64,000 nucleotides of DNA from Candidatus Epulonipiscium sp. (GCA_012519205.1 JAAYQR010000028.1:4411-68410), one strand, 5' to 3'. Counted from the first letter of the stretch, positions 335-38,560 are shown. Notes: generated by a model not told the origin, from the letters alone. Numbers and translations: made by a program.

Positions 335-693
335 TTTACTTCCTCCTTTTTTCTTAATGCTGCACGTTGGCAGTGATAACCTAATAAAAATTCACCGGAT
401 AATGCTGTATCTTTTATGAAGTCTTCCGGTTCAAATAAATTCATTATTTCATCAATTAAGCTCTCCCTACTTTTACCTTTTCCTTTTAGTCTTGTGAAAG
501 ATGGTTTTAGCGCTAATTCGATTGCTTTCCATGTTGAAAATGGATACTGGGAAAACCTCTGCATTAATCTATCTGCATTTGTTAGTCGATTTTCATCATT
601 TGTATCCAATGCCCATCTTTCAACATTTTGAGCTATGGCTAATAGTCTGCCATATAGATAATCTCTACTTCGTCTTTCCTTATCCAGTGCCAT
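328..693 (-). CDS. cas11c: Candidate Cas11c small subunit, translated from an internal start within cas8c (121 aa, same frame)
   Basis: In-frame ATG at 693-691 is preceded by a perfect AAGGAGG (708-702) at 8-nt spacing inside the cas8c coding sequence. The product starts MALDKERRSRDYLYGRLLAIAQ. Internal translation of Cas11 from the cas8 3' end is reported for type I-C systems. Confidence 0.6.
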   Translation of the reverse strand: MALDKERRSRDYLYGRLLAIAQNVERWALDTNDENRLTNADRLMQRFSQYPFSTWKAIELALKPSFTRLKGKGKSRESLIDEIMNLFEPEDFIKDTALSGEFLLGYHCQRAALRKKEEVKC

Positions 694-2130
694 ACTTATT
701 TCCTCCTTCTTATAATCATAGCAATACTTTTTATATAATGCACAAGTGATACTAAGAGATTTGTCAAAATTCCATTGTTTTTCAAATGCAACCCTATTTA
801 CTGTTCTTCTAACGGAATTCTGAACTAAATCTAAAGGTATCTTTTGTCCATCCGTGATACAAGTTAAAATTCTATCTATCACCTGCATTTTAACTTTTGT
901 ATTAACTTGCTTTCCCTCGCCAAAAATTGTATTTGCGATATCCATAGGGGCCGGAGCTCCAACGAATACATGAGGTTTTTTATAATGATGAATCCAATTG
1001 CAGGTTGTATGCCACTTTTCTAATTTGTCGATAAAATCTTCGGGATTCATTTCCTGATAATATGTAATGGATAATCTTCCATCGGTAACTGATTCGAGAC
1101 TCATTAATACAACGTGATCAAGTTCATCTAGTTTTGAATTGTATCCACGTAATTTCATATTAATTTTATTGGCAACTTCTTCCCCTGTATAAGTAACTGC
1201 ATTTTCACTTCCTTGATCTTCCCCACTTAGTAAATCAAAAGTATCATAAAAAATATTAGCAATTTCTACCTTAGATGTTCTCCAGCAAATAATCGTTTTT
1301 TTACCATTATTATATCCTTGCTTTGATATTAGCCACTTCACGGCATTATGGGCCTTTTGAGAAACTTCGTAACTTACCCCATAACTTTGAGTGGAATTTA
1401 GAAATCTTCCTCTGTAAGTAAATCCGTTAGAATCATTAGAACTTATTATTTTTGCATTAGCACACTTATTATATATGTTTTTAGGATGATTTATAGCAGT
1501 GGGTAAATGCTTGCCTAATACTTGGCAAAAGCCTTTTGATGTCAATGAAGAACTATAATATTTTTCCCAACTCTTAAAAAGACTAATATCCCTCCATACA
1601 CGACTTTCTTTTATATCTATTTGTTCAACACACCATCTTATAAAATCATCATTATTTTCCACATTCCCTTTATCATCCAAGGTATATACCTTTGCATTTA
1701 TCAAGTTTTCTATAAGAGTTCCTTTTTTTACATATTCATAAATGGCTTTTACCTTCCCATGGGTATCATTGGATACTGCCCATTGATATAAGTTTTTGCA
1801 GTAATCTTCATATCCATGCCATTTTTCGCCTCCATATTTCTTATAATCCCCAGCTAGATATTGTACCTTATCACATAATGGATGTGGAACTGGATATTTA
1901 CCTGCTCTACCACCTGATTCTTCTGTGCAAGGTATAATTATGCTAGGGCTATCCTTATCTAAGATATGGGCTCTTAAAAAATTACCCTTTCCATCAATAA
2001 CCACTTCAATCTGCGCCTGTACAATAGTATGATATATGGGCAGTAGAGGAGTTGTATCTTCACTTTCTATAACTCCTACTTGTGAAATATTATTTTCATA
2101 TGTATCATAAAGTCTTTGAATCCAACTCAT
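328..2130 (-). CDS. cas8c: Cas8c (Csd1) type I-C large subunit
   Basis: The 600-aa ORF lies between cas5c and cas7c in the canonical I-C order. The N-terminus MSWIQRLYDTYENN is Csd1-like. I prefer ATG 2130 (GAGGAGG 6 nt upstream) over the track start 2145, which lies inside that SD. Confidence 0.85.
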   Translation of the reverse strand: MSWIQRLYDTYENNISQVGVIESEDTTPLLPIYHTIVQAQIEVVIDGKGNFLRAHILDKDSPSIIIPCTEESGGRAGKYPVPHPLCDKVQYLAGDYKKYGGEKWHGYEDYCKNLYQWAVSNDTHGKVKAIYEYVKKGTLIENLINAKVYTLDDKGNVENNDDFIRWCVEQIDIKESRVWRDISLFKSWEKYYSSSLTSKGFCQVLGKHLPTAINHPKNIYNKCANAKIISSNDSNGFTYRGRFLNSTQSYGVSYEVSQKAHNAVKWLISKQGYNNGKKTIICWRTSKVEIANIFYDTFDLLSGEDQGSENAVTYTGEEVANKINMKLRGYNSKLDELDHVVLMSLESVTDGRLSITYYQEMNPEDFIDKLEKWHTTCNWIHHYKKPHVFVGAPAPMDIANTIFGEGKQVNTKVKMQVIDRILTCITDGQKIPLDLVQNSVRRTVNRVAFEKQWNFDKSLSITCALYKKYCYDYKKEEISMALDKERRSRDYLYGRLLAIAQNVERWALDTNDENRLTNADRLMQRFSQYPFSTWKAIELALKPSFTRLKGKGKSRESLIDEIMNLFEPEDFIKDTALSGEFLLGYHCQRAALRKKEEVKC

Positions 2131-2839
2131 ACCCCGCCTCCTCATACCCTTCTAGTAGCCTTGGCTCACTTATTCCGACTGTACTAATCTGCTCAAAATC
2201 CATTTCTTTAATAATCTTTGGTGTAGTATCTACGAAATCCATTGAAAACATAATAACACCATCTTTCATTATCGGTTTCCAAAAATATGCCTTTAAATTG
2301 TTTTCTCCGGATTCACTTGGGTAATCAAATTTATAAAACATTCTGTCAAACCGTAGTTCTCCATAATTATCATAAAACCCCTTCTTCGCGCCATATACTA
2401 CAGGTTCTACATATGCCTGACATTCTCTTGTTCCAAGAAAAACATCTCGTCTGCCTCCTTTTTCAATCATTCTCTTCGCTACAAAGAAATGTTTATTTTC
2501 ATTCCTATCTACTTCTAAATCCGTTCTATTAAGATTCCATTCAAAATGGGCTCTTACTTCGTATTCAACATCGCTTAAGTATGTATAATATGAAAGGGTA
2601 TTTCCTCCATTGTAATTAATGGGTCTAATACCTTGGCTCTGGGTTCTGATAGGATTCATTACCCGAATCTCATCAATAATCCAGTGAAATGTCGGTTTCC
2701 AATATATGCTTTCACATATTCCCTTTAATGCTTGATAAGTCGGAATTTGATATGTGAACTTTTCTCCCCCAACACGGGTTATGGAATCAGTAAAAAGAGC
2801 GTACCTTCCATAAATTTTAAACTCAACTTGATTTCTCAT
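2105..2839 (-). CDS. cas5c: Cas5c (Cas5d) type I-C pre-crRNA endoribonuclease / Cascade subunit
   Basis: 244 aa. N-terminus MRNQVEFKIYGRYALFTDSITRVGGEKFTYQIPTYQALKGICESIYWKP is typical of Cas5d. Sits between cas3 and cas8c. Confidence 0.88.
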   Translation of the reverse strand: MRNQVEFKIYGRYALFTDSITRVGGEKFTYQIPTYQALKGICESIYWKPTFHWIIDEIRVMNPIRTQSQGIRPINYNGGNTLSYYTYLSDVEYEVRAHFEWNLNRTDLEVDRNENKHFFVAKRMIEKGGRRDVFLGTRECQAYVEPVVYGAKKGFYDNYGELRFDRMFYKFDYPSESGENNLKAYFWKPIMKDGVIMFSMDFVDTTPKIIKEMDFEQISTVGISEPRLLEGYEEAGYELDSKTL

Positions 2840-2848
2840 AATCTCCTC

Positions 2849-5293
2849 CTATAAAATTGTGGCTTCTACAGCTTTTGATTCCATTAGTAAACCATAAGCA
2901 TCATCATAATAGGCCTCTGATAAATAATAGATTCCTGAATTCTTTTGAGTTTCATATATGGCTTCCATTTTACATAGGGCCTCAATTTGATAATGAAATA
3001 AATTAACCGAATGTCTTTGAGCTAACTTAAGATATGCGTACCCCTGTTCTAGGTAATACATGGCACATAAACCTGATATTATTTCTTTACTTTCATTGTT
3101 ATATGGAACAATAATGCCTTGGGTATATGTATCGATGGCTCTATAATTTTTAGCTGCTGTATCAAAAGCCTGTGTAAGGGTAATATGGGTGGCTTGTTTT
3201 CTATACTTAGCTGCCTCTATAGACTTTTCATTTATTGATAATAAGTTAAATATGTTATCTTGAACTCCCTCCTTCAATTTCACCAAATAAGGCATTCCCT
3301 CTTTTCTTTTGAAAAAGTAATACTCATAATATTTTTCTAAAGCTTTAGGACTAAGTAAATCATTATCAAACCTATCCGGTAAAACTCTATATTCTTCTAG
3401 AATCCGCTCCGTTACTTCTTTTCCCTTTAGAATATCCGTTAATCGAGATAACTTTTCATCTTTTGGATTAACTATGTAGACTTTTCCCTTATCTTTCATG
3501 AAACCATTTCTATTGCATCGACCTGCAGCCTGGACTATGGAATCTAACCCTGCCAAGTATCGAATAACTACATCAAAATCTATATTTATCCCCGCTTCCA
3601 TTAATTGTGTACTTACACAAATGATTGGTTCTGCCGTCCCATCCCTTGCCCGTTTAAGTTTATCAATCATTTCATTCAAACGCTCCATACGGTGAATAGG
3701 GCACATGCTTGTACTTAAATGATATACATTTTTAGAGTATTTATTTAATATTTTAGTGACTTTCATAGCAGAATTCTTTGTATTAACAATTATTAAAACA
3801 CTTTTTCCTTCTTTTACTTTATTTAAAACAAATTCTACTATTTCTTCGTTCTCCCATCCTCCAGTTTTTGTAAGATCTTCTGTAATAGTTCTTGAAAATT
3901 CTTTGTATAAGTTATTTGTGTTTTTAATGATTCTGTTCTTACTGTGGATATTTAATGCATAGGATTTAGGCTCAATTCTATCTAGAAGTGGTTGAGTGGC
4001 TGTACATAATACTATGGATGAGTGACATATTTCTTTTAGAAACTGCATGGCCATATTGAATAAATAAATAAATTTTACTCCTAATGTTTGTATTTCATCA
4101 AAAATTATTATGGAATTAGCCAATTGATGCATTCTTCTAACACTTCTTGTCCCTCCTGCAAATAACGTATCTAATAATTGCACCATAGAAGTAAAAATAA
4201 TGGGAGCATCCCAATTCTCTGATAATAATTTTGTTGTAGGCGTTTCTTCATCCTCAGTCAAGTTAGAGTGATGTTCTAAAACAACAGTTCCAAATTCCTC
4301 ATTAGTTTCTAAGATATCTCTAATTTCTTGAGCATTTTGATCAATAATCGTATTAAAGGGCACCACATATATAATTCTATCCATTTTATTTTCTTTGGCA
4401 TGGTGAAGTGCAAATCGCAGACTAGATAAGGTCTTTCCTCCACCTGTTGGAACTGTAAGTTGAAAAATATCATTATTAGCTTTCGCCGCAATTTTACAAC
4501 TATTAGATATCTCTGTTCTTAAACTATCTATCTTATTACGAATCTGAAATTTAGAAATATAATTTTCTAATCTTTCTATTAGAGTTGTCCAATCTATATA
4601 TTCACTATTTAAACGTCTCGTCTTCCCCATTGGCATTTGAAAGTCTGCGGTATCTTGCCTATCTGCATCTATCAAACAACTAAATAAATACTTTATAAGT
4701 AGACCAAACATATAAAAAGTTGTTTTATCGTCTTTAAATTTCTTTATACGGTCAAGATTATTCTTAAGCGGTGTAACTAAATCTTCATTAGTTAATTTAT
4801 CAATTAGAGATTTTAATTCATCATCCAAATTATTTACTGCCTCTATTAATCTCTCAATTGTTTCAGCCTTCTGCATTTTTTCATGTAGTAAGTTATTCCC
4901 ATCAGGAGTTAGACAGTCAATCAATCCCCCATGATGTGATTTAATTATTAATGATATAATGGACCTAATCCTTTCATCTATTTTTTCCAATTGATATATG
5001 TATTGTGCTCCTATTGATGAGTGATCTACTTTTCCCTTCCATTGGATGGGCTCCATATAATTTTTATCACCCTTATCTAATAATGCAGTTTGTGATTTTA
5101 TATATGAATTAAATAATTCTGTTTGTTTCCCTAAATCATGTAGTAGCCCTATTAATTCCCCCCATGATTTCATGCCAACTTTATTAGCATATTTCCCAGC
5201 TAGACGAGATGTTTCAATTAAGTGCTCTTTTACAGTCTGAATCACATCATCTTCTTTCCTATAATGCGCAATAAATATTTCATTTGAACTCAC
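2849..5293 (-). CDS. cas3: Cas3 HD nuclease / SF2 helicase (type I signature protein)
   Basis: N-terminal HD motifs HDLGK, SHHGG and IDADR. Helicase motif I PTGGGKT and motif II FDEIQ. 814 aa. GTG start at 5293 with GGAGGGAGG upstream. Confidence 0.93.
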   Translation of the reverse strand: MSSNEIFIAHYRKEDDVIQTVKEHLIETSRLAGKYANKVGMKSWGELIGLLHDLGKQTELFNSYIKSQTALLDKGDKNYMEPIQWKGKVDHSSIGAQYIYQLEKIDERIRSIISLIIKSHHGGLIDCLTPDGNNLLHEKMQKAETIERLIEAVNNLDDELKSLIDKLTNEDLVTPLKNNLDRIKKFKDDKTTFYMFGLLIKYLFSCLIDADRQDTADFQMPMGKTRRLNSEYIDWTTLIERLENYISKFQIRNKIDSLRTEISNSCKIAAKANNDIFQLTVPTGGGKTLSSLRFALHHAKENKMDRIIYVVPFNTIIDQNAQEIRDILETNEEFGTVVLEHHSNLTEDEETPTTKLLSENWDAPIIFTSMVQLLDTLFAGGTRSVRRMHQLANSIIIFDEIQTLGVKFIYLFNMAMQFLKEICHSSIVLCTATQPLLDRIEPKSYALNIHSKNRIIKNTNNLYKEFSRTITEDLTKTGGWENEEIVEFVLNKVKEGKSVLIIVNTKNSAMKVTKILNKYSKNVYHLSTSMCPIHRMERLNEMIDKLKRARDGTAEPIICVSTQLMEAGINIDFDVVIRYLAGLDSIVQAAGRCNRNGFMKDKGKVYIVNPKDEKLSRLTDILKGKEVTERILEEYRVLPDRFDNDLLSPKALEKYYEYYFFKRKEGMPYLVKLKEGVQDNIFNLLSINEKSIEAAKYRKQATHITLTQAFDTAAKNYRAIDTYTQGIIVPYNNESKEIISGLCAMYYLEQGYAYLKLAQRHSVNLFHYQIEALCKMEAIYETQKNSGIYYLSEAYYDDAYGLLMESKAVEATIL

Positions 5294-7141: not shown

Positions 7142-8305
7142 TTACATGGAATCATGTCGATATCTGTGAATCCATCTTTTTACTAATTCTAGCAAAGAGC
7201 CTTGATAATCTTTTTGTTTACCTTGTTCTTTTTGTATACGGGCTTGTTCGAGTTTTGCTCCTTCATATTCATCGTTAATTTTAAGTGCTTCTTGGATTGC
7301 TCTAGATGCATCTTCTAGTTTTTTCTTTTTTCTATATAGTCTTGCTAATCTGACCCAAGCTAAAATATAATTCTTATTTATTTCTATACTTTTTTGGGCA
7401 TAATCTATTGCCAATTCTTCTTTGTTCCAGCTTTCATATAGATTCGAATATTCCAACCAATACTCTTCTTTCCTAAGCTTAGAAGGGATTTGTTCTAGAT
7501 AGTCTTCTGCTAGTTCGTATTGCCTTTTACCTATATATAGCCTTGATAATCTTATATAACTATCATAATCATCACCTTTTTTAATAGACCTTTTATAAGA
7601 CTCCACTGCCTCATTTTCACTGCCTTGATTGTTATACAGTTCTCCGTAGTAAAACCATATTAGTTTAGAATCCTCCATAGCTGCTGCTTCATTAAGATAT
7701 TCTGCTGCTTTTTCATAATCTGTTTTAAGTATATAGAGTTCTGTTAGATTTAAAAGTATAGACAAATTATTAGATTCTTTTTCATTTGCTTTGGTAAGAA
7801 AATAGGCAGCATCATCATACCATCCTAAGTGCATACAAGCAATTCCCATATTATTATAAACCTTGGAGTTTTCATCAAAGACTATGGCTTTTTTATACCA
7901 CTTTATTGCTTCCTCTGGCTTTTTTAAGGACATAAAATAATCGGCTTTTTCCTTACACTTTTCCCACTCTGCTTTATTTTCCCATTTGAAAATTTCTTTT
8001 CTTAGAGTATCTAATTCAGATTCATAAAAATAATCAATAAGATCTAGAAACCCAATATACTGTTCTGTTATGGATTGCTGCCCATCTTTTATCCTTTTTA
8101 TCTGTCCACTTATATGAGATAAACCTAATTCCACTCTTACCCAGTCTTCTAGTTTTCCCATTAAAAAGTCATCAATAGACTGCTTCCAATAATGGTAGCA
8201 GTGATAATACAATTCTTCTATGGAATATACCTTAATTTTAGTCATATAAAAATAGTATGGTCTCTCCACTGTTTCAGGAGAGACGCTAAGTATTAATGAG
8301 GACAT
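7142..8305 (-). CDS. TPR-repeat protein, last gene of the multi-Hsp70 operon
   Basis: About 7 degenerate 34-aa TPR units, e.g. AIKWYKKAIVFDENSKVYNNMGIACMHLGWYDDA, AVESYKRSIKKGDDYDSYIRLSRLY and AIDYAQKSIEINKNYILAWVRLARLY. Preferred start is ATG 8305 (GAGGTG upstream). The track start GTG 8314 lies 3 nt after the upstream stop. Confidence 0.8.
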   Translation of the reverse strand: MSSLILSVSPETVERPYYFYMTKIKVYSIEELYYHCYHYWKQSIDDFLMGKLEDWVRVELGLSHISGQIKRIKDGQQSITEQYIGFLDLIDYFYESELDTLRKEIFKWENKAEWEKCKEKADYFMSLKKPEEAIKWYKKAIVFDENSKVYNNMGIACMHLGWYDDAAYFLTKANEKESNNLSILLNLTELYILKTDYEKAAEYLNEAAAMEDSKLIWFYYGELYNNQGSENEAVESYKRSIKKGDDYDSYIRLSRLYIGKRQYELAEDYLEQIPSKLRKEEYWLEYSNLYESWNKEELAIDYAQKSIEINKNYILAWVRLARLYRKKKKLEDASRAIQEALKINDEYEGAKLEQARIQKEQGKQKDYQGSLLELVKRWIHRYRHDSM

Positions 8306-8317
8306 CTTATTCACCTC

Positions 8318-10396
8318 TTATAATCGTACCAATTCTGCAATGTCCATTGCTATATTGTCTAAGATATCTGTAAACTTATCTTGTAAATCATAATATTTTC
8401 CATTAGGCTTTGTTAAAGGATCATAGCTCTCTATGCTTAATTTATCCTTTCTTGCTACAACATAAGTTGTTATACTACTTTCCCTTAGCATAGCACAAAT
8501 CTCAGGAACATATTTCCCATCTTCCGTAGGTACATGGGGTGGGGCATCAGTTATAAGTATAAATATGTTTTTACCACTTTTGTCCACTTTAGAAGTTTTC
8601 AAAAGTTCTATACCTGTACCTACCGCTTCCAAAGAAGATTCGGGTATATCCCCTCCATAGGTTCTTGGAATATTTTTAACTTGTCTTTGGAATTTTTCTA
8701 CTTCATTTGTGAAGTTATAGACACTGGGGTTTTCTTTTTCTCCTAAATCACCAAAACCTATAAGGCCCAATTGGAAACCTATACCTTTTCGACTTAGTAT
8801 ATTTGAAAATTCTATGGCCCTATCCTTAACTCCATTAATATAGGTGTCCATGCTCCCTGTAGTATCTATTATAAATACAATATTCATATTTTCGGCAGAA
8901 GTAGTCGAAAGCTCTCTTTTAGGTGGCGGCATAACCTTGGTCCTATCAAATTCTGCTCTTTCAGTTTTTCCTGTAGATAAATCTTTTACAAATACTTCGA
9001 AAAGATTATTTTCATCTATGGCATAGGTAATTTCTAGCTGGGTAGTACCCTTAAGCCCCGTAAGCATTACACTACCTATATATTTTCTTTCTTCTTCATT
9101 ATCTTGCTCCCATTGATAAACATCAACCTGTACCGAAGAAGCCCCGGACATACTGGCAAAGTTTCTATCAGATATCTTTGCCGGAATAGAACTGCCCATG
9201 GGGATAATGGGAATTAATTCTTTTTTCATGGTATCTACATTTATAACCGCTTCCGTACCAAAAATTTGGCGGGTGATTTGCCCCACCTTTACATTGCTGT
9301 TAGGAAGGTGGATGAGATAATTATAAATCGATGCCCCCATGGCTACACTCTTTGCAGGGTCCGTAGCACGATAGGGTTCCTTAATGTATCCCCCAACCAT
9401 TCTTTTTACCATAGGAATTAGGGTTGAACCCCCAACTAAGATTACCTTTGATATTTCGTCGGGTTCCCTTCCTGCCCTTTTTAGGGCCTCTTGTATAATT
9501 TCACGGCTTCTGTCTATATATTTTCTAATTAAGGCTTCAAATTCTTCCCTTGTTAACTCCATTACTAGATTTTTGGGGACCCCTTCATGAATTATAAGGG
9601 GATGAATCCTTATGGCTACTTTGTTAGTTCCTGAAAGTTTCTTCTTGGCTTGTTCCGCTTCTTGCTTTAGTTTTTGAACCACTCTTTTTCTTTCTACAGT
9701 TTCTAACTTGTCTAGATTAATCCCTGTCTCCTTTAAAAAATTCTCTTTCATCAGGCGTATAAGTTCACTGTCAAAATCATCTCCCCCAAGATTCATATCT
9801 CCGACATCAGATAATTCTTGAAATATTTCCTCCCCATTTTTATCTTGGGATACCTTTAGGACACAAGCATCAAAGGTTCCCCCACCTAAGTCATATACTA
9901 AAAGGGTTTGGGCATACCCCTGCCTATACCCATATTCTATTGCCGCTGCTAGGGGTTCTGATAAAAGATGAACATTCTTAAATCCTGCCATCTCCCCTGC
10001 TTTTTTTGTTGCAAATATCTGTCTGTCGTTAAAATATGCTGGGTGGGTTATGACTACTTCATCAAAATTTTCTCCACTTTGATTTTCTGCTGCTTTTTTT
10101 AACTTTTTTAGTATTTCGGCACTTATTTCTTCCGGGAGTTTTTCTAAGGCTCCTACTTTGATTTTTTCCGATTGTCCCATGAATCTCTTGACAGAAATCA
10201 CGGTGCTTTCTGGATATATGATTGCCCCAGCCTTGGCCTCACTGCCTACTATAATCCCTTCTTCTCCATAGCACACAACAGAGGGAAGGATTTCATCCAC
10301 TCCATCTATCTTTACAATTTCCATTTCATCTGTTTTATCTTTATATATGATTGCTGCCGAATTGGTGGTTCCTAAATCTATTCCTAAATAACTCAT
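8318..10396 (-). CDS. Hsp70-family ATPase (NBD + SBD-beta, no lid) fused to a C-terminal von Willebrand A domain
   Basis: Hsp70 motifs IDLGTTNSAAI, VYDLGGGTFDACV and LVGGSTLIPMV. SBD-beta-like LTGLKGTTQLEITYAIDENNLFEVFVKDLSTGK. The last 189 aa (8321-8887) begin MNIVFIIDTTGSMD and contain YGGDIPESSLEA and ILITDAPPH, which is a vWA fold with a MIDAS-like DxTxS. Confidence 0.85.
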   Translation of the reverse strand: MSYLGIDLGTTNSAAIIYKDKTDEMEIVKIDGVDEILPSVVCYGEEGIIVGSEAKAGAIIYPESTVISVKRFMGQSEKIKVGALEKLPEEISAEILKKLKKAAENQSGENFDEVVITHPAYFNDRQIFATKKAGEMAGFKNVHLLSEPLAAAIEYGYRQGYAQTLLVYDLGGGTFDACVLKVSQDKNGEEIFQELSDVGDMNLGGDDFDSELIRLMKENFLKETGINLDKLETVERKRVVQKLKQEAEQAKKKLSGTNKVAIRIHPLIIHEGVPKNLVMELTREEFEALIRKYIDRSREIIQEALKRAGREPDEISKVILVGGSTLIPMVKRMVGGYIKEPYRATDPAKSVAMGASIYNYLIHLPNSNVKVGQITRQIFGTEAVINVDTMKKELIPIIPMGSSIPAKISDRNFASMSGASSVQVDVYQWEQDNEEERKYIGSVMLTGLKGTTQLEITYAIDENNLFEVFVKDLSTGKTERAEFDRTKVMPPPKRELSTTSAENMNIVFIIDTTGSMDTYINGVKDRAIEFSNILSRKGIGFQLGLIGFGDLGEKENPSVYNFTNEVEKFQRQVKNIPRTYGGDIPESSLEAVGTGIELLKTSKVDKSGKNIFILITDAPPHVPTEDGKYVPEICAMLRESSITTYVVARKDKLSIESYDPLTKPNGKYYDLQDKFTDILDNIAMDIAELVRL

Positions 10397-12154: not shown

Positions 12155-13726
12155 TTATAGTTGGATAATTGCAGTTTGGGTATAATCTGTGGCGGGAAAC
12201 ATTTCTCCGAATCCACAGTCCTTTATGATTACCTCTATTTGGTCATATTGTCTAAATCCTAAGGTAAATTTTAGCCTTAGGGTTCTTGAAGGTCTATCGG
12301 GTAAGCCTTCAAGGTTTATGGTATGTAGGGGTGTTATCTCCCCCCTATCATTTCTTTTGTATACAGGTATACATAATGTGTTTTCCGTTTCCCCATCCAA
12401 TATAAATATTTTTGGTTTGGGTTTTTGCCACCAAAACGTATTTTTTTCTATTAGGGGTATGAAACAAGGTGCCTTTCTAAAGGCTCCATTAATCCCTATA
12501 TCCCAGGTTAACCTATGGTAATCTGTTAATTTAATCATTGTCTCAGGAATGATTCCCAAGTAAGAAGCGGCACCTATACATGCCCCTAGTGCTACCGTCC
12601 CTTCTGCTTCTTTTGGGTATATGATGGAACTTCCTAGAAATTCGTTTTCTAAAAGTTCCTTCATCCAGCTCATTTCAAAGCCGCCCCCAACGGCTATTAT
12701 TTTGTGTATTTCATTTTTATCGATTACTCCGTTGATTGTTTTATTTAACAATTTAGAAATAAATTCTTTAATACTTTGTGAAAATGGCTCTATGAGCCTA
12801 TCCATATCCTCAATAGTAACGGACTTTTGGAAGGCAGGATATACAAAGTTAAAATATAGTTTTGTTGTTTTTTTCTTATAATAGTTTTGGAATAATAACC
12901 CTTTATTTTGATATGCAAAGACCTCAATTTGGTGGAGAATTTCATCACTAATCCTATGTTGAGTTAGCCCTGTTTCTTCACAATAAAAATTAACAAATAA
13001 CTTTTTTAATAGTTTATCAAGTTTTCTTCCTCCCAAGGTTGAATCAAATAAATAAGATAATGTCTCCGCATTAACACTCCCTTCATTGGAAGGATTAACC
13101 CTAATAAGTCCTCCCCGTATCTGTTCTCCCCCATAATCGATAAATAAAACCTTTTCTTCACTGTTTAGAGAACGCTCAAAATACAAATATCTTAAAATAC
13201 ATTCTCTATAACCCATTAGATTTATTAAGGCCTTACTAAGCCCTGCAATTGAAAAAGCTCTTTCTAATTCTTCCCTAGCACTTTCCGAAAAATAATCCGG
13301 TACTGCGGCTATAACCCCTACTATATCTGCATTGGGGTTTAGGTTCTTACACATATCTATTATTTCTTTAATGTATCTACTAAGGAGGTTTGGTATATTC
13401 ATGGGTTTACCACTAATATTTATAAGTTCCTTAGTTCCTAATTTTGATAAGATATTATGAATTGTGATATCATCAAAATATCCCCTATTAAGTAGGGCAT
13501 ATTCACCATAGACCCATTCCCTATTTTCTGGAATGTATTGCATAACCGTTGGTATGGAGGGATTCCCATAACCACCACTCATATCGATTAATTCTGCCTG
13601 CTTCCTATTAACATTCCAAATGGCTATTTTGGTTGCTTTGCTTCCTATATCTATTCCTAGTATGAATTTTGTTTCGTCATTAAAGTCCATTGATGAAATT
13701 TGTTTTTTGAATATTTTCCAGCTCAT
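12155..13726 (-). CDS. Divergent Hsp70-like paralog with degenerate nucleotide-binding motifs (523 aa)
   Basis: Collinear with its neighbours, but phosphate-1 is IDIGSKATKIA, phosphate-2 is FIDYGGEQIRGG and the adenosine motif is AVGGGFEMSWM. The C-terminus LEGLPDRPSRTLRLKFTLGFRQYDQIEVIIKDCGFGEMFP parallels the 546-aa paralog. Confidence 0.7.
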   Translation of the reverse strand: MSWKIFKKQISSMDFNDETKFILGIDIGSKATKIAIWNVNRKQAELIDMSGGYGNPSIPTVMQYIPENREWVYGEYALLNRGYFDDITIHNILSKLGTKELINISGKPMNIPNLLSRYIKEIIDMCKNLNPNADIVGVIAAVPDYFSESAREELERAFSIAGLSKALINLMGYRECILRYLYFERSLNSEEKVLFIDYGGEQIRGGLIRVNPSNEGSVNAETLSYLFDSTLGGRKLDKLLKKLFVNFYCEETGLTQHRISDEILHQIEVFAYQNKGLLFQNYYKKKTTKLYFNFVYPAFQKSVTIEDMDRLIEPFSQSIKEFISKLLNKTINGVIDKNEIHKIIAVGGGFEMSWMKELLENEFLGSSIIYPKEAEGTVALGACIGAASYLGIIPETMIKLTDYHRLTWDIGINGAFRKAPCFIPLIEKNTFWWQKPKPKIFILDGETENTLCIPVYKRNDRGEITPLHTINLEGLPDRPSRTLRLKFTLGFRQYDQIEVIIKDCGFGEMFPATDYTQTAIIQL

Positions 13727-15692: not shown

Positions 15693-17378
15693 TTAGTATA
15701 AGTCGTCTACAGATAGCTCCGTCTCTACTCCACTAGTACTCATGCTTTTAGCCATTACCTTAAGCATATTGTCCTGTCCTATATGAAAGATTACTTTTAC
15801 CTTTTCTTCTCCCTTTGCCTTAGACGGGATACCCCTTAGGCTCGTTCCTGCAAGGCGTTTCATACCATCTTCCATTACATAGGAAGCTTTCTTTTCTTCA
15901 CTAGAGGGTCTCATGTTTTCATAAACAACTATTGCCATACTGGTTACATTGTCAAAATTAGTAACCAAAAGTTCCGCCGCCTCTATAGTAAGACCCTCCT
16001 CAGGAATATCTACACCACTTTTTACAATCTCCATAAATCTTCTACCTGATATTTCGAGCCCTAAAGGGTGAATGGTCTTTTCTTGAACAATAGGTCCCTT
16101 TACCGTAGGCATCATAATCATATTGCAGTAATGGGCTGCCCCTTGAGAAATACTTAGGGCGGGACTAATTTTTGATTTAAAGGGTTCTTTTCCAAACTTT
16201 TCTTTTATTTTCTCCCTTATTCTAGGAATCGCAGAGGAACCTCCCACTAAGAATGTTTCATCAATATCTCTAGCTTCTAAGGAGGCAGCTCTTAGACATT
16301 CATCAATACACTCAATACTTCTTTCTATTAAGTCTTCTACCGATTTCCCTTCTAGTTTACTAAATACTTCATCGGAATCCCCTAACTGGTTGATTCTTTT
16401 ATGGTTTAAAAAGGCATCCTTTGTAATTTCCATATTGATATTAATAATTTTAGGTTCCTGGATAAATGGAGCTAAAACAACTTTGGTGGATTTAGCCGAT
16501 GAAAGTCTTTCCTTAGCTTGGTTAGCTACTTGGGCAAGGCGAACTAAAGCTGTTGTTTTTTGCCGTTTTGATGCACCATCATCAGCGTTTAAATCAAATA
16601 GATTAATTTCCTCATTAGTCATTTTTTTAAATTCTTCATAAACCATATCTATTATTATTTTATCTACGTCATTTCCACCTAGATAATTGTCACCAAAGGT
16701 ACTTAGTATAGATATAGAGGGTTCATCGGTATCTGTCATCCTTATATCCAGAACACAAGCATCAAAGGTTCCGCCCCCAAAATCATAAACCAATACCTTT
16801 TTATTTTTTCTTTCGTTGACTGCATATGAAATTGCTGCAGCTGCCGGTTCTAATCTAAGGTATATGTTATCTTCATCAAAACCTGCTAGTTTTGCGGCTT
16901 CTTTTGTCATTTTCTTTTGTTTATCCGTTGAATTGGCAGGAACGGTTATTACGCAGCCTGAGAATTCTCCTGCTATATTTAGTTCCTCTTGAGCATATTC
17001 ATCAGCTTTTTGCTTAAGATACCCTAATATCTCCCCAGTCACCTGCTCGGGAGTAAATTCATACTCTTTATCATCTACCACTATTTTTACTTTTTCTTCA
17101 CTTCCTAGAAGGCGCTTTATCGATAAAACTGTACTTTGCGGATAAATTATAGCTGCTTCTTTTGCCTGTATCCCAAAAATCCTAGATAGTTTATCAGGAT
17201 CATCGGGATCCGTTTCGAATTGTACCGCCGTTGGGAAAACATTGCTTCCATCAATGGGTATGGTTTGTACTTGTCCTTCTTTAAAGTCATACACACTTAC
17301 TACTGAGTTTGTTGTTCCAAAGTCGATTCCTAAAAACAATCCTCTTTCTACATCTAATCCTAGTGTTCCCACAAGCAA
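15693..17378 (-). CDS. Hsp70-family ATPase paralog, lidless (about 560 aa)
   Basis: Motifs IDFGTTNSVVS, VYDFGGGTFDACVL and LVGGSSAIPRI. SBD-beta-like LRGIPSKAKGEEKVKVIFHIGQDNMLKVMAKS. The track start is TTG 17378. GTG 17372 has better spacing to the AGGAGG at 17387-17381. Confidence 0.85.
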   Translation of the reverse strand: MLVGTLGLDVERGLFLGIDFGTTNSVVSVYDFKEGQVQTIPIDGSNVFPTAVQFETDPDDPDKLSRIFGIQAKEAAIIYPQSTVLSIKRLLGSEEKVKIVVDDKEYEFTPEQVTGEILGYLKQKADEYAQEELNIAGEFSGCVITVPANSTDKQKKMTKEAAKLAGFDEDNIYLRLEPAAAAISYAVNERKNKKVLVYDFGGGTFDACVLDIRMTDTDEPSISILSTFGDNYLGGNDVDKIIIDMVYEEFKKMTNEEINLFDLNADDGASKRQKTTALVRLAQVANQAKERLSSAKSTKVVLAPFIQEPKIININMEITKDAFLNHKRINQLGDSDEVFSKLEGKSVEDLIERSIECIDECLRAASLEARDIDETFLVGGSSAIPRIREKIKEKFGKEPFKSKISPALSISQGAAHYCNMIMMPTVKGPIVQEKTIHPLGLEISGRRFMEIVKSGVDIPEEGLTIEAAELLVTNFDNVTSMAIVVYENMRPSSEEKKASYVMEDGMKRLAGTSLRGIPSKAKGEEKVKVIFHIGQDNMLKVMAKSMSTSGVETELSVDDLY

Positions 17379-17387: not shown

Positions 17388-20090
17388 TTATAATAACCAC
17401 CCTACATTATTCTTTTGGTTCTCGCAAATCATTTCATCAAGTATTGACTCAACCTTATCAAATTCTAAATCATGGCTATAAATACTCGCATTGTTTAATT
17501 TTTCGTAAACCTCTTTTGGATTGCCCCTTAGTTTTTTGCAGTTATGGTTATACATTTTGACTTCCGTAAGGATAATATTGTCTTCCTTATCGATTTCTTC
17601 AATATAGTATTCCATACTTTCATTAAAAAACAAAGAAACACAAATTCCATATAAGCCAAAAGCTATAGGATACATTTTCTTTTTATTCAAGGGAAAACCT
17701 TGAATTTTATAACAAAAATAGACTTCCTTCCCCTTCTTAGTATAATGGGTAAAGGGGGTATTCTGTTCTACATACGAAAAATACGGAAATTTGTCTTGTT
17801 TTTCTTTAATAATTGGAAAAATAAATTGATTTCTTTTCATCCATTTAAAAATGGGTAGTATTGTTTCATTTTTTATTTCTATATTCATTGGGATATTTGC
17901 GTAAATATGAATAAGAGATGATCCTAATAGCATATCTTGAGTAAGTTCAAAGTTTTTTTCTAGTTTTTCTAGGGTTTTTGGTGTAACCATCTTCCCATTT
18001 ATCAAAATTTCATAGCTGCAATATAGGATAAAGTCATTTGCCATGGTGGGTTCTTTTTCATATATGTTTTGAAAAGCTTCTTCTAGTTCTTCATTCAAAT
18101 CTCTAATCCAAATCCCCTTTTGCAATATTTTTTTATCTATATCGTAGGTTGGCTTTTCTAGGAGTTTTATCATATGCCTTAAGGCATACCATTCTCCCAT
18201 ACTTCCTTTATAATTCTTAAGAACATAATCTAAAATAACTTCATCGTATTTTCTTTCTAAAATAAGATTATATGCAATCCCTGCAATATATGAATTCTCT
18301 ATGTTTAACTCTATTCCCTTTTTTACTAGTTTAAACTTTGTATCATCCCCTAATGAATCCGAGCCTTGCGCCCAAAATATTGCCTTAGTTACATCTCCCC
18401 CTTCTATTAACGCATTTATTCCGTATTCTATCTGATACGGGTATAAATCCTGTAAATCTAGAGGTTTAAAGTATGGGAATGCCTTTTCTTGTTCTTTATT
18501 AAAACTATAAAGTGTTCCTAAGGAAGCTGATATTTTTTTCCTGAAGGTATCGGACAATGCGCTATTTTCTAAGCATTCCCCCATTATCCTTACAGCCTTT
18601 ATCAAAGATAGATTTCCCATGTTTTTTGGCATTTCATTTATAAAGTATTTAGTAAGTCTAATTAGAAGGCTTGCACTCCTATAGCCTTCATCATAATACT
18701 TTAATAATAAATCTACGGGCACATCTTTAACTAATTTATTCACCCGTATTAAGTCTTTAGGATAAATGCCCTTCTGCCTCTGACCTATACAAAGAATAGT
18801 CAGCTCATCTTTTTCATGGGCAACTGCTTCTATATAAAGTATCTTTTTATCGACTATATATGTAGCCGTTGTTTCTTTTTCGCTTTCGATAACCCATATA
18901 TATTTAATTAAGGGAGATTCTACATAGACTTCATATGTAAAAAGCTGCTCAAATATTGCTTTTTTAAATAAGTTATCGTTTTCGTTTTTCTCTAGTAATC
19001 GCATATATATATCAATATAGTATTTTCCTTGTTTGTTTGCTCTTAAGGCATTTTCCCCAAAGGCAAGAATCTTATTGTAATGAATTTGAAAAAGCATCCT
19101 ATGCTGCTCATCCTTGCATAAGATTGAGTATATATAGGCAGTTAGAGATTCATTAAATTGCTCCTTAAGCATTGCTGATTGTAAAATTGATGTAGGAATT
19201 TTTACCATATCTAGCTTATGAGCTGTTTCTATATATGCCAAATGAACTCCCTTAACATAAAATTTTAAATCTATTATTGCCTCAAATACCTTAAAGGCTT
19301 CCTTATCCCTCTTATTTTCTTTTATATAGGTTGCACATAATAGTACCAAGGCCTCGCTAATACCCCATCTATTATACATTTTTTCTATATAGTCCTTGGG
19401 AATATTGAGGCTTTCTTGATTTTGATTTGCCCAGCTTATAAATAACTTTGCATTTTCCTTATCCAAAACCTCATATTTTATTGCCCATATAAAAACAGCC
19501 CTGACCATATCCTTCATATTATAAAAATAAGTGAAATCAAGACAAAGCAACCGGTATACCTCTGAATATAAAAACGGGCTCCTTAAACCATTTAGAAAAG
19601 CCTTGTCATAATAATAGGCTTGGGTTTTTTCTTCATTAAAAAATTCTCTTTCTATCATGGCTTTTATAAAAAATAATATTCCGCTATTTTCTTCTTCTAA
19701 GCAATCATCAAATATCTTAAGAGACCTTTGTACAAACATATGTCTACCTTTATAATAATCTATCAATGCCTTAAAATAATATAGGATTGCCAAAATGGTT
19801 TTGTCGGTATCATGGTAATATTTTTTGTATTTGAGTAAAGCCTTAAGGGACTTATATGCCTCATCATATCTTTCTAGTTTTATTTTTAACCAAATAAGAC
19901 TTAAAGCAATCCTTATCTCTATTGGATTTTGTCTATTAAGTTCAGATACCAATAGTATCGAATCGTTATATTTCCCCATAAGTCCATAGCTTACTGCATT
20001 AAATAGTCTTACACGATAGGCGATACGATTTTGATTGGATTTGTCTTCCCACTTATCCATTAATGTCTGCATATATCCATTCATTTTCAT
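17388..20090 (-). CDS. 900-aa protein of unknown function, with an alpha-solenoid / TPR-like N-terminal region and a mixed C-terminal region
   Basis: Long uninterrupted ORF whose ATG overlaps the upstream stop (ATGA at 20087-20090). No signal peptide, TM segment or catalytic motif that I recognise. Helical repeat character, e.g. YDEAYKSLKALLKYKKYYHDTDKTILAILYYFKALIDYYKG. Confidence 0.55.
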   Translation of the reverse strand: MKMNGYMQTLMDKWEDKSNQNRIAYRVRLFNAVSYGLMGKYNDSILLVSELNRQNPIEIRIALSLIWLKIKLERYDEAYKSLKALLKYKKYYHDTDKTILAILYYFKALIDYYKGRHMFVQRSLKIFDDCLEEENSGILFFIKAMIEREFFNEEKTQAYYYDKAFLNGLRSPFLYSEVYRLLCLDFTYFYNMKDMVRAVFIWAIKYEVLDKENAKLFISWANQNQESLNIPKDYIEKMYNRWGISEALVLLCATYIKENKRDKEAFKVFEAIIDLKFYVKGVHLAYIETAHKLDMVKIPTSILQSAMLKEQFNESLTAYIYSILCKDEQHRMLFQIHYNKILAFGENALRANKQGKYYIDIYMRLLEKNENDNLFKKAIFEQLFTYEVYVESPLIKYIWVIESEKETTATYIVDKKILYIEAVAHEKDELTILCIGQRQKGIYPKDLIRVNKLVKDVPVDLLLKYYDEGYRSASLLIRLTKYFINEMPKNMGNLSLIKAVRIMGECLENSALSDTFRKKISASLGTLYSFNKEQEKAFPYFKPLDLQDLYPYQIEYGINALIEGGDVTKAIFWAQGSDSLGDDTKFKLVKKGIELNIENSYIAGIAYNLILERKYDEVILDYVLKNYKGSMGEWYALRHMIKLLEKPTYDIDKKILQKGIWIRDLNEELEEAFQNIYEKEPTMANDFILYCSYEILINGKMVTPKTLEKLEKNFELTQDMLLGSSLIHIYANIPMNIEIKNETILPIFKWMKRNQFIFPIIKEKQDKFPYFSYVEQNTPFTHYTKKGKEVYFCYKIQGFPLNKKKMYPIAFGLYGICVSLFFNESMEYYIEEIDKEDNIILTEVKMYNHNCKKLRGNPKEVYEKLNNASIYSHDLEFDKVESILDEMICENQKNNVGWLL

Positions 20091-21338: not shown

Positions 21339-21368
21339 ATTATATATCAATCTACTTTAATTTTCCAA
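21339..21368 (-). promoter_or_regulatory. Candidate sigma-A promoter of the multi-Hsp70 operon
   Basis: Minus strand reads TTGGAA (21368-21363), 18-nt spacer, TATAAT (21344-21339), about 30 nt upstream of the first gene. The context is AT-rich, so specificity is low. Confidence 0.3.
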
Positions 21369-38554: not shown

Positions 38555-38560
38555 TTAAAA

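Follow-up and report, generated by a model that had tools for sequence, protein, structure and literature searches.

Hsp70s belong to the most thoroughly studied molecular machines. Their targeting is thought to need J-domain proteins, and their substrate trapping a helical lid; DnaK truncated in its lid remains allosteric and still binds substrate, with faster kinetics. A MIDAS site binds its ligand through a carboxylate, and vWA proteins serve as adaptors for the ATPases MoxR, CbbQ, NorQ, BchI and Rea1. BchD and Rea1 provide precedents for fusion in cis. Conflict systems composed of HSP70 and GrpE homologues, TPR or DnaJ proteins and GTPases have been described (Kaur, Burroughs, Iyer & Aravind 2020; PMC7159879), with no Hsp70-vWA fusion among them. 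A FEBS J review of 2026 (PMC13580251) covers prokaryotic DnaK-derived paralogues that have gained domains and whose lids are shortened or lost, and suggests that they are partners of other Hsp70s; it mentions neither vWA fusions nor operons of the kind presented here. In addition, a literature search covered DUF5716/DUF5717 as well as Hsp70 in combination with vWA, MIDAS, dynamin or PIN. Neither the fusion nor its operon was described in the papers found, and the only one that names either DUF is an unrelated study.

In the window analysed here (the whole stretch of 64,000 nucleotides from Candidatus Epulonipiscium sp.), a conserved gene encodes a lidless Hsp70-vWA protein within an uncharacterised operon, and similar fusions occur across many bacterial phyla. 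The operon consists of eight genes in the order DUF5717 (two ORFs), Hsp70, GrpE-like, pseudo-Hsp70 (DUF5716), Hsp70, Hsp70-vWA and TPR protein (Table 1). The fusion shares with DnaK an actin-like NBD with its catalytic residues, an SBDβ and a GrpE-type factor encoded nearby, but differs in the absence of the SBDα lid, a divergent linker, the replacement of R167 by His and the deletion of DnaK segment 79-104 (26 residues), and its operon has neither a J-domain partner nor a CIRCE operator. With the MoxR-vWA pairs (RavA-ViaA, CbbQ-CbbO, NorQ-NorD, BchI-BchD and Rea1/Midasin), it has in common an ATPase and a MIDAS-bearing vWA domain thought to dock onto targets, whereas the ATPase here is an actin-fold Hsp70 instead of a ring-forming AAA+ protein. 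A scan of the operon proteins by Pfam and motifs found no AAA+/MoxR, GTPase or Walker A/P-loop; the missing AAA+ gene rules out a MoxR-vWA system. The DO-GTPase/GAP1-N2 systems (PMC7159879) similarly comprise HSP70 paralogues, some of them truncated, a GrpE homologue and a TPR protein, and occur in Firmicutes, but the lack of a GTPase or any P-loop motif in the non-Hsp70 operon proteins rules out such a system, as compared on its GTPase half. Like the DnaK-derived paralogues of prokaryotes (PMC13580251) and like HscC, YegD and HSPA12/13/14, the fusion combines an Hsp70 NBD with a missing lid and an added domain, but it belongs to a self-contained operon with its own exchange factor.

Table 1. 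Positions of the fusion gene, its domains and motifs, and the genes of its operon, counted from the first letter of the window
Feature	Position	Strand	Evidence and remarks
Hsp70-vWA fusion gene	8318..10396	(-)	692 aa plus stop codon; uninterrupted ORF, ATG start
Hsp70 NBD, residues 1-365	9302..10396	(-)	DnaK alignment; Foldseek matches to DnaK structures
NBD-SBD linker, residues 366-378, NSNVKVGQITRQI	9263..9301	(-)	Unlike DnaK VLLLDVTP; clade-conserved
SBDβ, residues 379-490	8927..9262	(-)	Pfam HSP70, model, DnaK alignment; not followed by an α-helical lid
Pro-rich variable tether, residues 491-503, PPKRELSTTSAEN	8888..8926	(-)	Orthologue alignment; pLDDT <50
vWA domain, residues 504-692 (M504-L692, 189 aa)	8321..8887	(-)	Pfam, AlphaFold2, Foldseek, PDB-sequence profile search
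MIDAS motif 1 DTTGSMD, residues 511-517 (D511, T513, S515)	8846..8866	(-)	Orthologue alignment
GGDIPES, residues 581-587 (E586 predicted fourth MIDAS ligand, D583 SyMBS-like)	8636..8656	(-)	Aligned to integrin NIDTPEG
TDAPPH, residues 616-621 (D617 predicted fifth MIDAS ligand)	8534..8551	(-)	Aligned to integrin SDADSH
DUF5717 protein, first part, 407 aa	20087..21310	(-)	Pfam DUF5717_N positions 8-292; 4-nt overlap with next ORF
DUF5717 protein, second part, 900 aa	17388..20090	(-)	Pfam DUF5717_N and DUF5717; helical, TPR-like N-terminal half
Lidless Hsp70 paralogue, catalytically intact, ~560 aa	15693..17378	(-)	Pfam HSP70, motifs; conserved C-terminal tail LSVD(D/E)LY
Long GrpE-like protein, 640 aa	13743..15665	(-)	Pfam GrpE, E 4e-12; operon position conserved
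DUF5716-type pseudo-Hsp70, 523 aa	12155..13726	(-)	Pfam DUF5716_C and weak HSP70 match
Lidless Hsp70 paralogue, catalytically intact, 546 aa	10393..12033	(-)	Pfam HSP70; stop overlaps fusion start (ATGA)
TPR protein, 387 aa	7142..8305	(-)	Pfam TPR families; GAGGTG ribosome-binding site
Best sigma-70-like promoter match ahead of the first operon gene, TTGGAA-18-TATAAT	21339..21368	(-)	Consensus match; number of sites in the region equals chance expectation

Architecture and conservation of the fusion protein

The Pfam model HSP70 (PF00012) matched residues 4-488 with an E-value of 3e-93 over profile positions 2-501 of 599, and the identity to DnaK structures is 33-37% over ~500 residues. The catalytic residues D7, K70, E147 (DnaK E171), D169 (D194), T174 (T199) and D176 (D201) are kept, and together with T10 and T11 they are invariant in the 47 orthologues; the first-pass annotation was thus right to call the ATPase motifs and SBDβ intact. 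Hsp70 homology ends exactly at the end of SBDβ. The model has β-strands at residues 378-483, followed by coil and then the vWA domain, and the Foldseek alignment to DnaK comprises ~500-520 columns. No residues were aligned to DnaK helices A-E and the model contains no lid helix. The fusion is a predicted catalytically competent yet lidless Hsp70 (NBD and SBDβ). As the first-pass annotation had placed it, the vWA domain stands where the lid would sit: alignment to DnaK puts its onset, after a tether of ~13 aa, where helix A would begin. The vWA domain likewise begins 10-25 residues past SBDβ in all 10 divergent fusions tested. In the full-length model, which has a pTM of 0.50, the tether is disordered, and the inter-domain geometry of the fusion protein is not confidently predicted.

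The NBD-SBD linker, with a mean identity of 86% among orthologues, lacks the hydrophobic VLLL stretch of DnaK; together with the change of DnaK R167 to His, this suggests that allosteric coupling may differ from that of DnaK. The scores against the NCBIfam equivalogs lie far below the cut-offs, with 343 versus 822 bits for DnaK (TIGR02350), 292 versus 708 bits for HscA (TIGR01991) and 90 versus 331 bits for PRK11678, which rules out a housekeeping DnaK, HscA or HscC. In addition, no CIRCE operator was found within the window.

A genome scan with a vWA alignment of four sequences as query revealed further carriers of the same fusion. The species-level genomes that encode it number at least 47 and belong to Defluviitaleaceae, Epulonipiscium, Vallitaleaceae and related Clostridia, in agreement with the single Hsp70-vWA polypeptide proposed in the first-pass annotation. 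Further clades of fusions, at 29-45% identity, were found in Bacillaceae, Deinococcus, Gammaproteobacteria, Fusobacteria and Campylobacterota. The architecture, for which the first-pass annotation had suggested a database search, is thus widespread, and it is already deposited in databases under the mere name “Hsp70 family protein”. Among the orthologues, the mean identity is 78% for the NBD and 73% for the vWA domain, compared to 28% for the tether, the length of which is nearly constant. Judging from these alignments, strict purifying selection acts on the ATPase residues as well as on those of the predicted MIDAS. A full-length fusion was absent by tblastn from 72,556 plasmids and from 50,697 phage records, and an origin on mobile elements was rejected. 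The carriers include the cultured Defluviitalea phaphyphila Alg1, Peribacillus kribbensis and Photobacterium phosphoreum, which make questions on Hsp70-vWA proteins testable.

The presence of Met504 at the very start of the vWA domain, and of short “vWA-only” proteins in the database, would fit two adjacent genes, for an Hsp70 and a vWA protein, that only seem fused through an error in sequencing or assembly or through a missed stop codon, the last of which the first-pass annotation had also allowed for. Conservation data already refute this explanation, to which we assign a negligible probability. The identical 692-aa protein is encoded on five independent contigs and the fusion is in frame in the 47 species-level genomes, which rules out a missed stop codon or assembly artefact. 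Met504 is unconserved, most orthologues having V, L, F or I at this site, and an internal start at this position is thus ruled out as well. The close short matches (58-84% identity) come from contigs of ~1-5 kb and are fragments, since those that were aligned start inside SBDβ or the tether; a search for vWA-only proteins gave mostly fragments at contig ends.

The vWA domain and its MIDAS

The assignment of the last 189 residues to a vWA fold, made in the first-pass annotation from motifs, is in accord with profile and structure comparisons. Pfam VWA_4 (PF25106) matched residues 506-642 with 39.3 bits against a gathering score of 27, and VWA (PF00092) matched residues 505-661 with 29.6 bits against 23.8. 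AlphaFold2 predicted the C-terminal 193 residues with a pLDDT of 90.1 and a pTM of 0.89 in the β-α-β topology of a vWA domain. Structural similarity search of this model with Foldseek returned vWA and integrin β I-like domains with TM scores of 0.74-0.80 and E-values of ~1e-10, the top matches being integrin β I-like domains. Moreover, the best profile matches among PDB sequences are integrins β6, β8 and β3, at 12-16% identity.

In the profile alignment against these three integrins, GGDiPES corresponds to NIDTPEG and TDApPH to SDADSH. There is no classical MIDAS Thr; the aligned residue is Glu586, which belongs to the invariant PES motif. The first-pass annotation had given the letters DxTxS, GGD and TDA correctly; however, it took Asp583 for the residue replacing the Thr of GGT, which by alignment is Glu586. 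Glu586 would be the counterpart of the fourth MIDAS ligand of integrin β3, E220, and Asp583 that of the SyMBS Asp, D217 in the same numbering. The residues D511, T513, S515, M516, G581, G582, D583, P585, E586, S587 and D617 are invariant in the 47 orthologues. In fusion clades at 29-39% identity, D511, S515, M516, G582, D583 and D617 are still invariant, and T513, G581 and E586 nearly so. The predicted MIDAS, composed of D511, T513, S515, E586 and D617, is complete and of the integrin-β type. This is the regular form in a large VWA_4-like vWA subfamily, and the term “variant MIDAS” finds no support if taken to mean unusual or degenerate. The proteobacterial Hsp70-vWA relatives have the classical DxSxS/GGT/TDG MIDAS.

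The fusion and the integrin β I-like (βA) domain share DxS/TxSM, D-x-P-E and (S/T)DAxxH as well as Glu as the (here predicted) fourth MIDAS ligand, but the fusion is a cytoplasmic bacterial protein without the ADMIDAS pair, the specificity-determining loop or the hybrid-domain insertion. The Asp-Asp pair of the ADMIDAS is replaced by D-T-Y after S515-M516, at positions that vary across clades, and neither a complete SyMBS, nor a specificity-loop Asp, nor a hybrid domain was found in the vWA part of the fusion. The missing ADMIDAS pair and the deviation from the textbook DxSxS...T...D could be taken as signs of a decayed vWA fold that binds no metal and serves as a structural or oligomerisation appendage only. 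We regard this as very improbable, because all five predicted ligands are invariant among the orthologues and nearly so across clades, the motif pattern is that of a functional integrin-β MIDAS, and Thr and Ser are chemically equivalent ligands.

The multi-Hsp70 operon and its surroundings

The fusion gene is translationally coupled within the operon. Upstream, its start codon overlaps the stop codon of the 546-aa Hsp70 gene, with the ribosome-binding site GGAGGGAG at this junction; downstream, the probable ATG start of the TPR gene at 8305 lies 12 nt past the fusion stop codon. The same gene order is found in ~30 of the 47 species genomes that carry the fusion, and the TPR gene directly follows the fusion in 36 species loci. 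The 546-aa Hsp70 is the most constant neighbour, reduced loci included. In a few species the fusion has no other companion than the 546-aa Hsp70, the TPR gene or both, or stands alone on its contig, which suggests that the full operon may not be obligatory.

The operon encodes four lidless Hsp70 paralogues: the fusion, two catalytically intact proteins and the DUF5716-type pseudo-Hsp70, which by motif alignment has lost the equivalents of K70, E171, T199 and D201. The GrpE domain (46.4 bits against a gathering score of 25.8) occupies residues 507-637 of the 640-residue GrpE-like protein, behind an N-terminal extension of ~500 aa. DUF5716_C and DUF5717 (Pfam PF18980, PF18983 and PF18984) co-occur here and in related loci, and the split of DUF5717 into two ORFs recurs in related contigs. 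For the function of DUF5717, phmmer against PDB sequences gave no match, Pfam was uninformative beyond the DUF models, and the second part contains no Walker A motif. No operon protein matched the Pfam model of DnaJ, and an HPD motif occurs only in the linker of one Hsp70; a J-protein may be encoded elsewhere in the genome. The four lidless paralogues, the GrpE-like and TPR proteins encoded in the operon and the wide spread of the architecture had escaped the first-pass annotation.

A DUF815 AAA gene at 22662-23858 is cut off from the operon by a gene on the opposite strand, and a divergently oriented MoxR gene in one related contig is not conserved. A distance of 1.8 kb separates the Hsp70-vWA operon from a type I-C cas operon; MocA, MsrB and cas genes flank the Hsp70-vWA operon only in contigs of the same species, so that a functional link is unsupported. 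In related species the operon is often located beside housekeeping genes resembling rplS, rbgA and valS. A TerY-P triad (vWA, PP2C and Ser/Thr kinase) was also rejected, because the operon has no kinase or PP2C, both of which accompany only unfused vWA relatives. Searches against PADLOC-DB v2 gave only weak partial matches of the NBDs to the candidate model PDC-M61B (E-values of 1e-7 to 1e-10), and a named anti-phage defence system is thus ruled out.

Possible roles of the vWA domain

We see about an even chance that the operon encodes a dedicated multi-Hsp70 machine, one subunit of which has the vWA domain as a built-in docking adaptor. Such an adaptor would be metal-dependent, an Asp or Glu of the partner completing the coordination of the MIDAS cation, and the partner would most likely be a product of this operon or its client. 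While docking keeps the Hsp70 on the partner, the adjacent SBDβ would bind and release a nearby segment under ATP/ADP control, and the GrpE-like protein would reset the cycle. The vWA domain would then take over the targeting for which canonical DnaK relies on J-domain proteins and the lid, in parallel to the vWA adaptors that recruit MoxR-type AAA+ ATPases, and the fusion would be a specialised subunit of a multi-Hsp70 assembly rather than a general heat-shock chaperone. Consistent with this proposal are the purifying selection on both halves, the constant placement of the vWA domain, and an operon that provides a dedicated GrpE-type exchange factor and is devoid of J-domain, AAA+ and P-loop proteins; the equivalog scores and the absent CIRCE speak against a housekeeping chaperone. 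Moreover, sister proteins built on the lidless chassis either lack a tail or carry a TerD tail or a PIN insert, and such varied add-ons suggest that the added domain is more readily seen as an “adaptor or tool” than as a structural lid. On the other hand, the low pTM leaves the inter-domain arrangement uncertain, the linker without VLLL and the His at R167 depart from DnaK, the MIDAS was assigned by alignment to integrin β domains, and some species are without the full operon.

The start of the vWA domain at the helix A position, the same in all divergent fusion clades, and a tether conserved in length and not in sequence would also suit a substitute lid, in which the vWA domain closes over the SBDβ cleft in the ADP state and clamp cycles gate the MIDAS or trap a ligand in cis. 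This alternative comes closest to the interpretation in the first-pass annotation, and we consider it unlikely: the chassis appears to need no lid substitute, since sister Hsp70s work without a C-terminal domain or with an unrelated TerD, and the disordered tether and unpredicted domain arrangement come with no identified conserved contact surface. The related notions that the Hsp70 replaces a MoxR partner and that its clamp cycle is coupled to a vWA-bound ligand are best read as an analogy. If the vWA domain does recruit a client, as a docking adaptor would, Hsp70 would be the second ATPase class, after AAA+ MoxR, to use a vWA adaptor, and the fusion would offer a simple natural system for J-protein-independent Hsp70 targeting. 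In place of a lid and an operon-encoded J-domain protein, a putative metal-dependent docking domain is hard-wired to the chaperone in dozens of species and across phyla.

A conflict or defence role is possible for the Hsp70-vWA operons, and it is compatible with the adaptor mechanism, from which it differs in the biological role. In an NTP-dependent (e.g. anti-phage) system, the Hsp70 ATPase core would set a threshold and the vWA domain would sense or tether an invader or effector, with the fast-evolving DUF5717, GrpE-like, pseudo-Hsp70 and TPR proteins as sensing or effector parts. We hold this tentatively, as possible rather than probable. The precedent of PMC7159879 and the nearby cas operon favour it, as do the clusters around distant fusions in Peribacillus, Photobacterium, a gammaproteobacterial MAG and a metagenome contig, which include an Hsp70 interrupted by a PIN nuclease domain, an Hsp70-TerD fusion and dynamin-like GTPases, and in Peribacillus also a WHH/Colicin-DNase toxin with SUKH immunity. 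The closest unfused vWA proteins (45-48% identity) likewise have kinase-vWA-PP2C genes, HerA/FtsK-like ATPases and Tox-HNH/Tox-GHH toxins as neighbours. The identity of ~74% for the Hsp70s versus 30-38% for the accessory proteins points the same way, although ordinary differences in fold constraint could also explain it. Against a conflict role, the operon encodes no nuclease, toxin, GTPase or other recognisable effector, the PADLOC matches are weak, and the gene order is stable in many species, often beside housekeeping-like genes; furthermore, plasmids and phages yielded no full-length copy and conservation of the cas neighbourhood does not extend to other species.

Rather doubtful, in our estimate, is the broader proposal that Hsp70-vWA fusions mark undescribed multi-Hsp70 machines of several phyla with an immune or conflict function, the Lachnospirales operon being an effector-poor, vertically retained derivative. 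In these machines the lidless NBD-SBDβ chassis would be duplicated within each operon, each copy with its own “tool” (vWA/MIDAS, TerD, PIN or none), and with a TPR scaffold and a GrpE-like exchange factor reserved for them; the clusters of Proteobacteria and Bacilli encode dynamin-like GTPases and toxins as well. Multi-Hsp70 operons could thus represent a new chaperone-based cellular system, possibly immune, on which we found no paper in the searchable literature. The proteins of unassigned function in the proteobacterial and Bacillus clusters share no homology by phmmer with the GrpE-like, DUF5717 and TPR proteins of the operon, the only trace being a 250-aa protein of one cluster with a weak GrpE match (E-value of 6e-4).

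Architecture of the Hsp70-vWA fusion

The ORF of the fusion comprises 692 codons from an ATG start without interruption. Pfam search revealed an HSP70 match at residues 4-488 (E 3e-93, profile positions 2-501 of 599), together with VWA_4 at residues 506-642 (39.3 bits, curated threshold 27) and VWA at residues 505-661 (29.6 bits, curated threshold 23.8). In an alignment to E. coli DnaK (638 aa), the Asp, Lys, Glu and Thr residues of the catalytic site are retained, the alignment stops exactly at the end of the DnaK SBD-beta, and none of the DnaK lid helices is found in the fusion. The ATPase motifs and SBD-beta that the first-pass annotation placed in residues 1 to ~500 are thus confirmed, and both the ATPase site and SBD-beta are predicted to be intact. 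The AlphaFold2 model of the full-length fusion (pLDDT 74.8, pTM 0.50) matches DnaK structures over ~500 residues and leaves the relative placement of the domains unpredicted, because residues 493-501 are disordered.

The C-terminal 193 residues alone yielded a confident AlphaFold2 model (pLDDT 90.1, pTM 0.89) with the strand-helix order of a vWA domain. Structural similarity search using Foldseek demonstrated that its best PDB matches are integrin beta I-like domains, with TM scores of 0.74-0.80 and E ~1e-10, followed by the vWA domains of ITIH, SpaC and the anthrax receptor. In the sequence profile search, integrin beta6, beta8 and beta3 rank first (E 2e-7). Altogether, Pfam, the model, Foldseek and the profile search bear out the earlier assignment of the last 189 aa (8321-8887) to a vWA fold; these coordinates and the three motifs quoted for the protein were also right.

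In the profile alignment against integrin beta, the segments DtTgSM, GGDiPES and TDApPH correspond to DLSASM, NIDTPEG and SDADSH, respectively, and the site is therefore of the integrin-beta type. By homology, Glu586 would take the place of the classical MIDAS Thr, a position previously given to Asp583, which instead aligns with, and would be the counterpart of, the Asp of the neighbouring SyMBS of integrin. The DxTxS and TDA motifs once described as a variant MIDAS were correctly read, but they represent the normal signature of a subfamily and not a degenerate site. Compared to the integrin beta domain, the vWA domain of the fusion lacks the ADMIDAS Asp pair. The MIDAS of the fusion is predicted to be intact and of the integrin-beta type, and the domain that bears it is joined to the Hsp70 part by a short, flexible tether.

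Conservation and breadth of the fusion

The identical fusion protein is present on five contigs. Its best 120 database relatives, named solely “Hsp70 family protein”, share at least 74% identity, are 688-694 aa long and all contain HSP70 and VWA. When one genome per species was scanned, the fusion turned up in 49 loci; Defluviitalea phaphyphila Alg1, whose vWA domain is 89% identical, ranks among the nearest, and the remaining carriers belong to Candidatus Epulonipiscium, Defluviitaleaceae, Vallitaleaceae and termite-gut or other Clostridia MAGs. Across 47 full-length orthologues, all ATPase residues are invariant, as are D511, T513, S515, M516, G581, G582, D583, P585, E586, S587, T616, D617, A618 and H621 in the MIDAS region. 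Relative to the window protein, the NBD averages 78% identity, the SBD-beta 69% and the vWA domain 73%, but the Pro-rich tether of 13-16 residues only 28%. Met504 is unconserved among these orthologues, which excludes a conserved internal start. A missed stop codon between two genes is ruled out by the five contigs and the in-frame fusion in all 47 orthologues, in agreement with the single polypeptide first proposed.

Exhaustive searching of 1.84 billion cluster representatives with HMMER revealed ~12 more 50%-identity clusters that align end to end with the fusion at 29-39% identity. In all ten divergent fusions scanned, the HSP70 match ends near profile position 500 and the vWA domain begins 10-25 residues further on. 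Residues D511, S515, M516, G582, D583 and D617 are invariant across the divergent clades, and T513, G581, E586 and H621 nearly so. The integrin-beta form of the MIDAS is shared by the window and Peribacillus clades, whereas the proteobacterial fusions have the textbook form, DVSYSM ... GGTD ... TDG. With one of the divergent proteins, WP_026691852.1 of Peribacillus kribbensis, as query, HSP70+VWA proteins of 650-780 aa account for 80 of the 120 top relatives and come from Neobacillus, Selenomonadaceae, Thiovulum, Cetobacterium, Photobacterium phosphoreum and Gammaproteobacteria; the rest are either Hsp70s of ~490 aa that lack a lid or fusions of Hsp70 to TerD. Thus, the fusion is widespread, with many further carriers in several phyla, and already present in databases. 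Literature searches found no paper describing it; it is uncharacterised, and cultured carriers exist for experiments.

Organization of the operon

The fusion is gene 7 of eight co-directional genes. The stop codon of the 546-aa Hsp70 gene and the ATG of the fusion, which follows a GGAGGGAG ribosome-binding site, overlap in ATGA; the fusion's own stop lies 12 nt before the TPR gene. For the latter, the mechanical ORF list gives a GTG start at 8314 (region 8302-8317, minus strand); the ATG at 8305 is the likelier start, because a GAGGTG ribosome-binding site precedes it and gene calls in related contigs agree. The fusion gene is tightly coupled to those of the other Hsp70 paralogues and the TPR protein.

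Features of the operon and of the adjacent cas genes in the window
Feature	Position	Strand	Remark
cas8c/csd1	328-2145	-	type I-C
cas5d	2105-2839	-	type I-C
cas3 (HD + helicase)	2849-5293	-	type I-C
TPR protein	7142-8305	-	387 aa from ATG at 8305
Hsp70-vWA fusion	8318-10396	-	
Hsp70, 546 aa	10393-12033	-	
DUF5716 protein	12155-13726	-	
GrpE-like, 640 aa	13743-15665	-	GrpE domain at 507-637
Hsp70, 561 aa (about 560)	15693-17378	-	
DUF5717, second ORF	17388-20090	-	900 aa
DUF5717, first ORF	20087-21310	-	407 aa

All four Hsp70-like proteins of the operon are lidless, and motif alignment showed that three retain the catalytic residues. In the DUF5716 protein, the counterparts of DnaK K70, E171, T199 and D201 are lost, and the protein is thus predicted to be an Hsp70-fold pseudo-ATPase; its phosphate-1 and phosphate-2 motifs are replaced, the stretches reading GIDIGSKATK, NILSKLG, GYRECIL and IDYGGEQIRG. 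The operon also encodes a private GrpE-like factor. Pfam and motif searches found no J-domain, AAA+ or P-loop protein among its products, upholding the earlier view that an AAA+ partner is absent, and no CIRCE element occurs within the 64-kb window.

The gene order is repeated in ~30 species genomes, and in reduced or split loci the 546-aa Hsp70 and TPR genes are the constant neighbours of the fusion. DUF5717, a single Pfam family pair of ~1,200 aa, is divided here into two ORFs with a 4-nt overlap at 20087-20090; the same split in related contigs L004, L005 and L007 excludes a sequencing error. A reduced cluster in GCA_900198705.1 (FZPS01000063.1 5180094-5202169), a 5.6-Mb record that may be a concatenated assembly, encodes a 251-aa GrpE, a 526-aa protein, a 556-aa Hsp70, the fusion and a TPR protein; it lacks DUF5717 and the 561-aa Hsp70, and a divergent MoxR-type AAA+ gene lies upstream.

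Two of the Hsp70s bear conserved C-terminal tails. That of the 561-aa Hsp70, LSVD(D/E)LY (15696-15716, minus strand), is acidic-aromatic, strongly conserved in orthologues (loci L008-L056) and mostly at the extreme C-terminus, whereas the 546-aa Hsp70 has a separate tail, DPSRFNKTVLEG(EE). Eukaryotic TPR co-chaperones bind an EEVD tail, of which LSVD(D/E)LY is reminiscent, and the TPR gene is the last of the operon. Speculatively, this tail could be one candidate ligand of the MIDAS or, alternatively, of the TPR protein.

Possible roles of the vWA domain and the operon

In MoxR-type systems, vWA adaptors serve AAA+ ATPases. By analogy, we propose that the vWA domain might act as a built-in docking adaptor, whose metal ion would bind an acidic residue of a specific partner and position the lidless Hsp70 clamp on it, giving the targeting otherwise provided in DnaK by a J-protein or the lid. 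A role as an added tool is favoured over that of a lid substitute, because sister proteins built on the same chassis end without a tail, carry TerD as a tail or contain an inserted PIN domain. The original interpretation, in which an Hsp70 replaces the AAA+ partner and would couple its clamp cycle to a vWA-bound ligand, is partly supported: the architecture and the lack of an AAA+ partner stand, the cis-coupled clamp is hypothetical, and the MIDAS once described as variant is of a normal subfamily type.

A function of the operon in biological conflict rather than housekeeping is possible, but we consider it less likely than not. It is suggested by the surroundings of distant fusions, which in P. 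kribbensis (AUMQ01000016.1), P. phosphoreum, a gammaproteobacterial MAG and a metagenome contig (loci L092-L095) lie in larger clusters. These comprise an Hsp70 whose NBD contains an inserted PIN_4 domain, a fusion of Hsp70 to TerD, and two or three plain Hsp70s without lids that alternate with unknown proteins of 450-575 aa. The clusters also encode dynamin-like GTPases, a large TPR protein, a ~255-aa protein that matches GrpE weakly and, in P. kribbensis, a WHH/Colicin-DNase toxin and SUKH immunity protein; in a Deinococcus MAG, two other Hsp70-like genes flank the fusion. Such contexts resemble the GTPase-centred conflict systems with HSP70, GrpE, TPR or DnaJ components (Kaur et al. 2020, PMC7159879), whose defining GTPase is, however, missing from the window operon; PADLOC identified no system matching the L092-L095 clusters, and gave only weak matches to the operon proteins. 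The closest unfused vWA relatives (45-48% identity), a 246-aa zinc-ribbon-vWA protein and vWA proteins of ~275 aa (loci L003, L088, L090), point the same way, with a TerY-P-like conflict neighbourhood of FHA, PP2C, Ser/Thr kinase, kinase-vWA-PP2C, HerA/FtsK-like ATPase and Tox-HNH/Tox-GHH toxin genes, whereas the window operon has no recognisable effector.

Unequal conservation also argues for conflict: mean identity to the window is ~74% for the three active Hsp70s but 30-38% for the second DUF5717 ORF, GrpE-like protein, pseudo-Hsp70 and TPR protein (loci L008-L054), which reach just 52-69% in the nearest species. Nevertheless, the gene order is stable throughout a family-level clade, the flanks are variable and frequently carry housekeeping genes, and tblastn against 72,556 plasmids and 50,697 phage records found no full-length fusion. 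The nearby type I-C cas operon (328-5293), truncated by the window start and continued by cas7, cas4 and cas1 on the same-species contig L004, would fit a conflict role, but this neighbourhood is restricted to same-species contigs.

Elsewhere in the window, the product of the minus-strand gene 32176-35691 (1,171 aa) combines a CspB prodomain with several subtilase (S8) stretches; it looks like a CspBA-like fused spore-germination protease and thereby suggests that the host is one of the spore-forming Clostridia. Genes for SbcCD (38749-43486) and for arabinose utilisation are located nearby. Because a tRNA gene (38561-38634, minus strand) falls within ORF 37539-38663 of the mechanical list, the 5' portion of this ORF is probably spurious. 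In addition, a THF riboswitch (24732-24840) precedes a membrane-protein gene (23944-24702), and a cobalamin riboswitch (58193-58371) precedes the gene at 57146-58090, both riboswitches on the minus strand.
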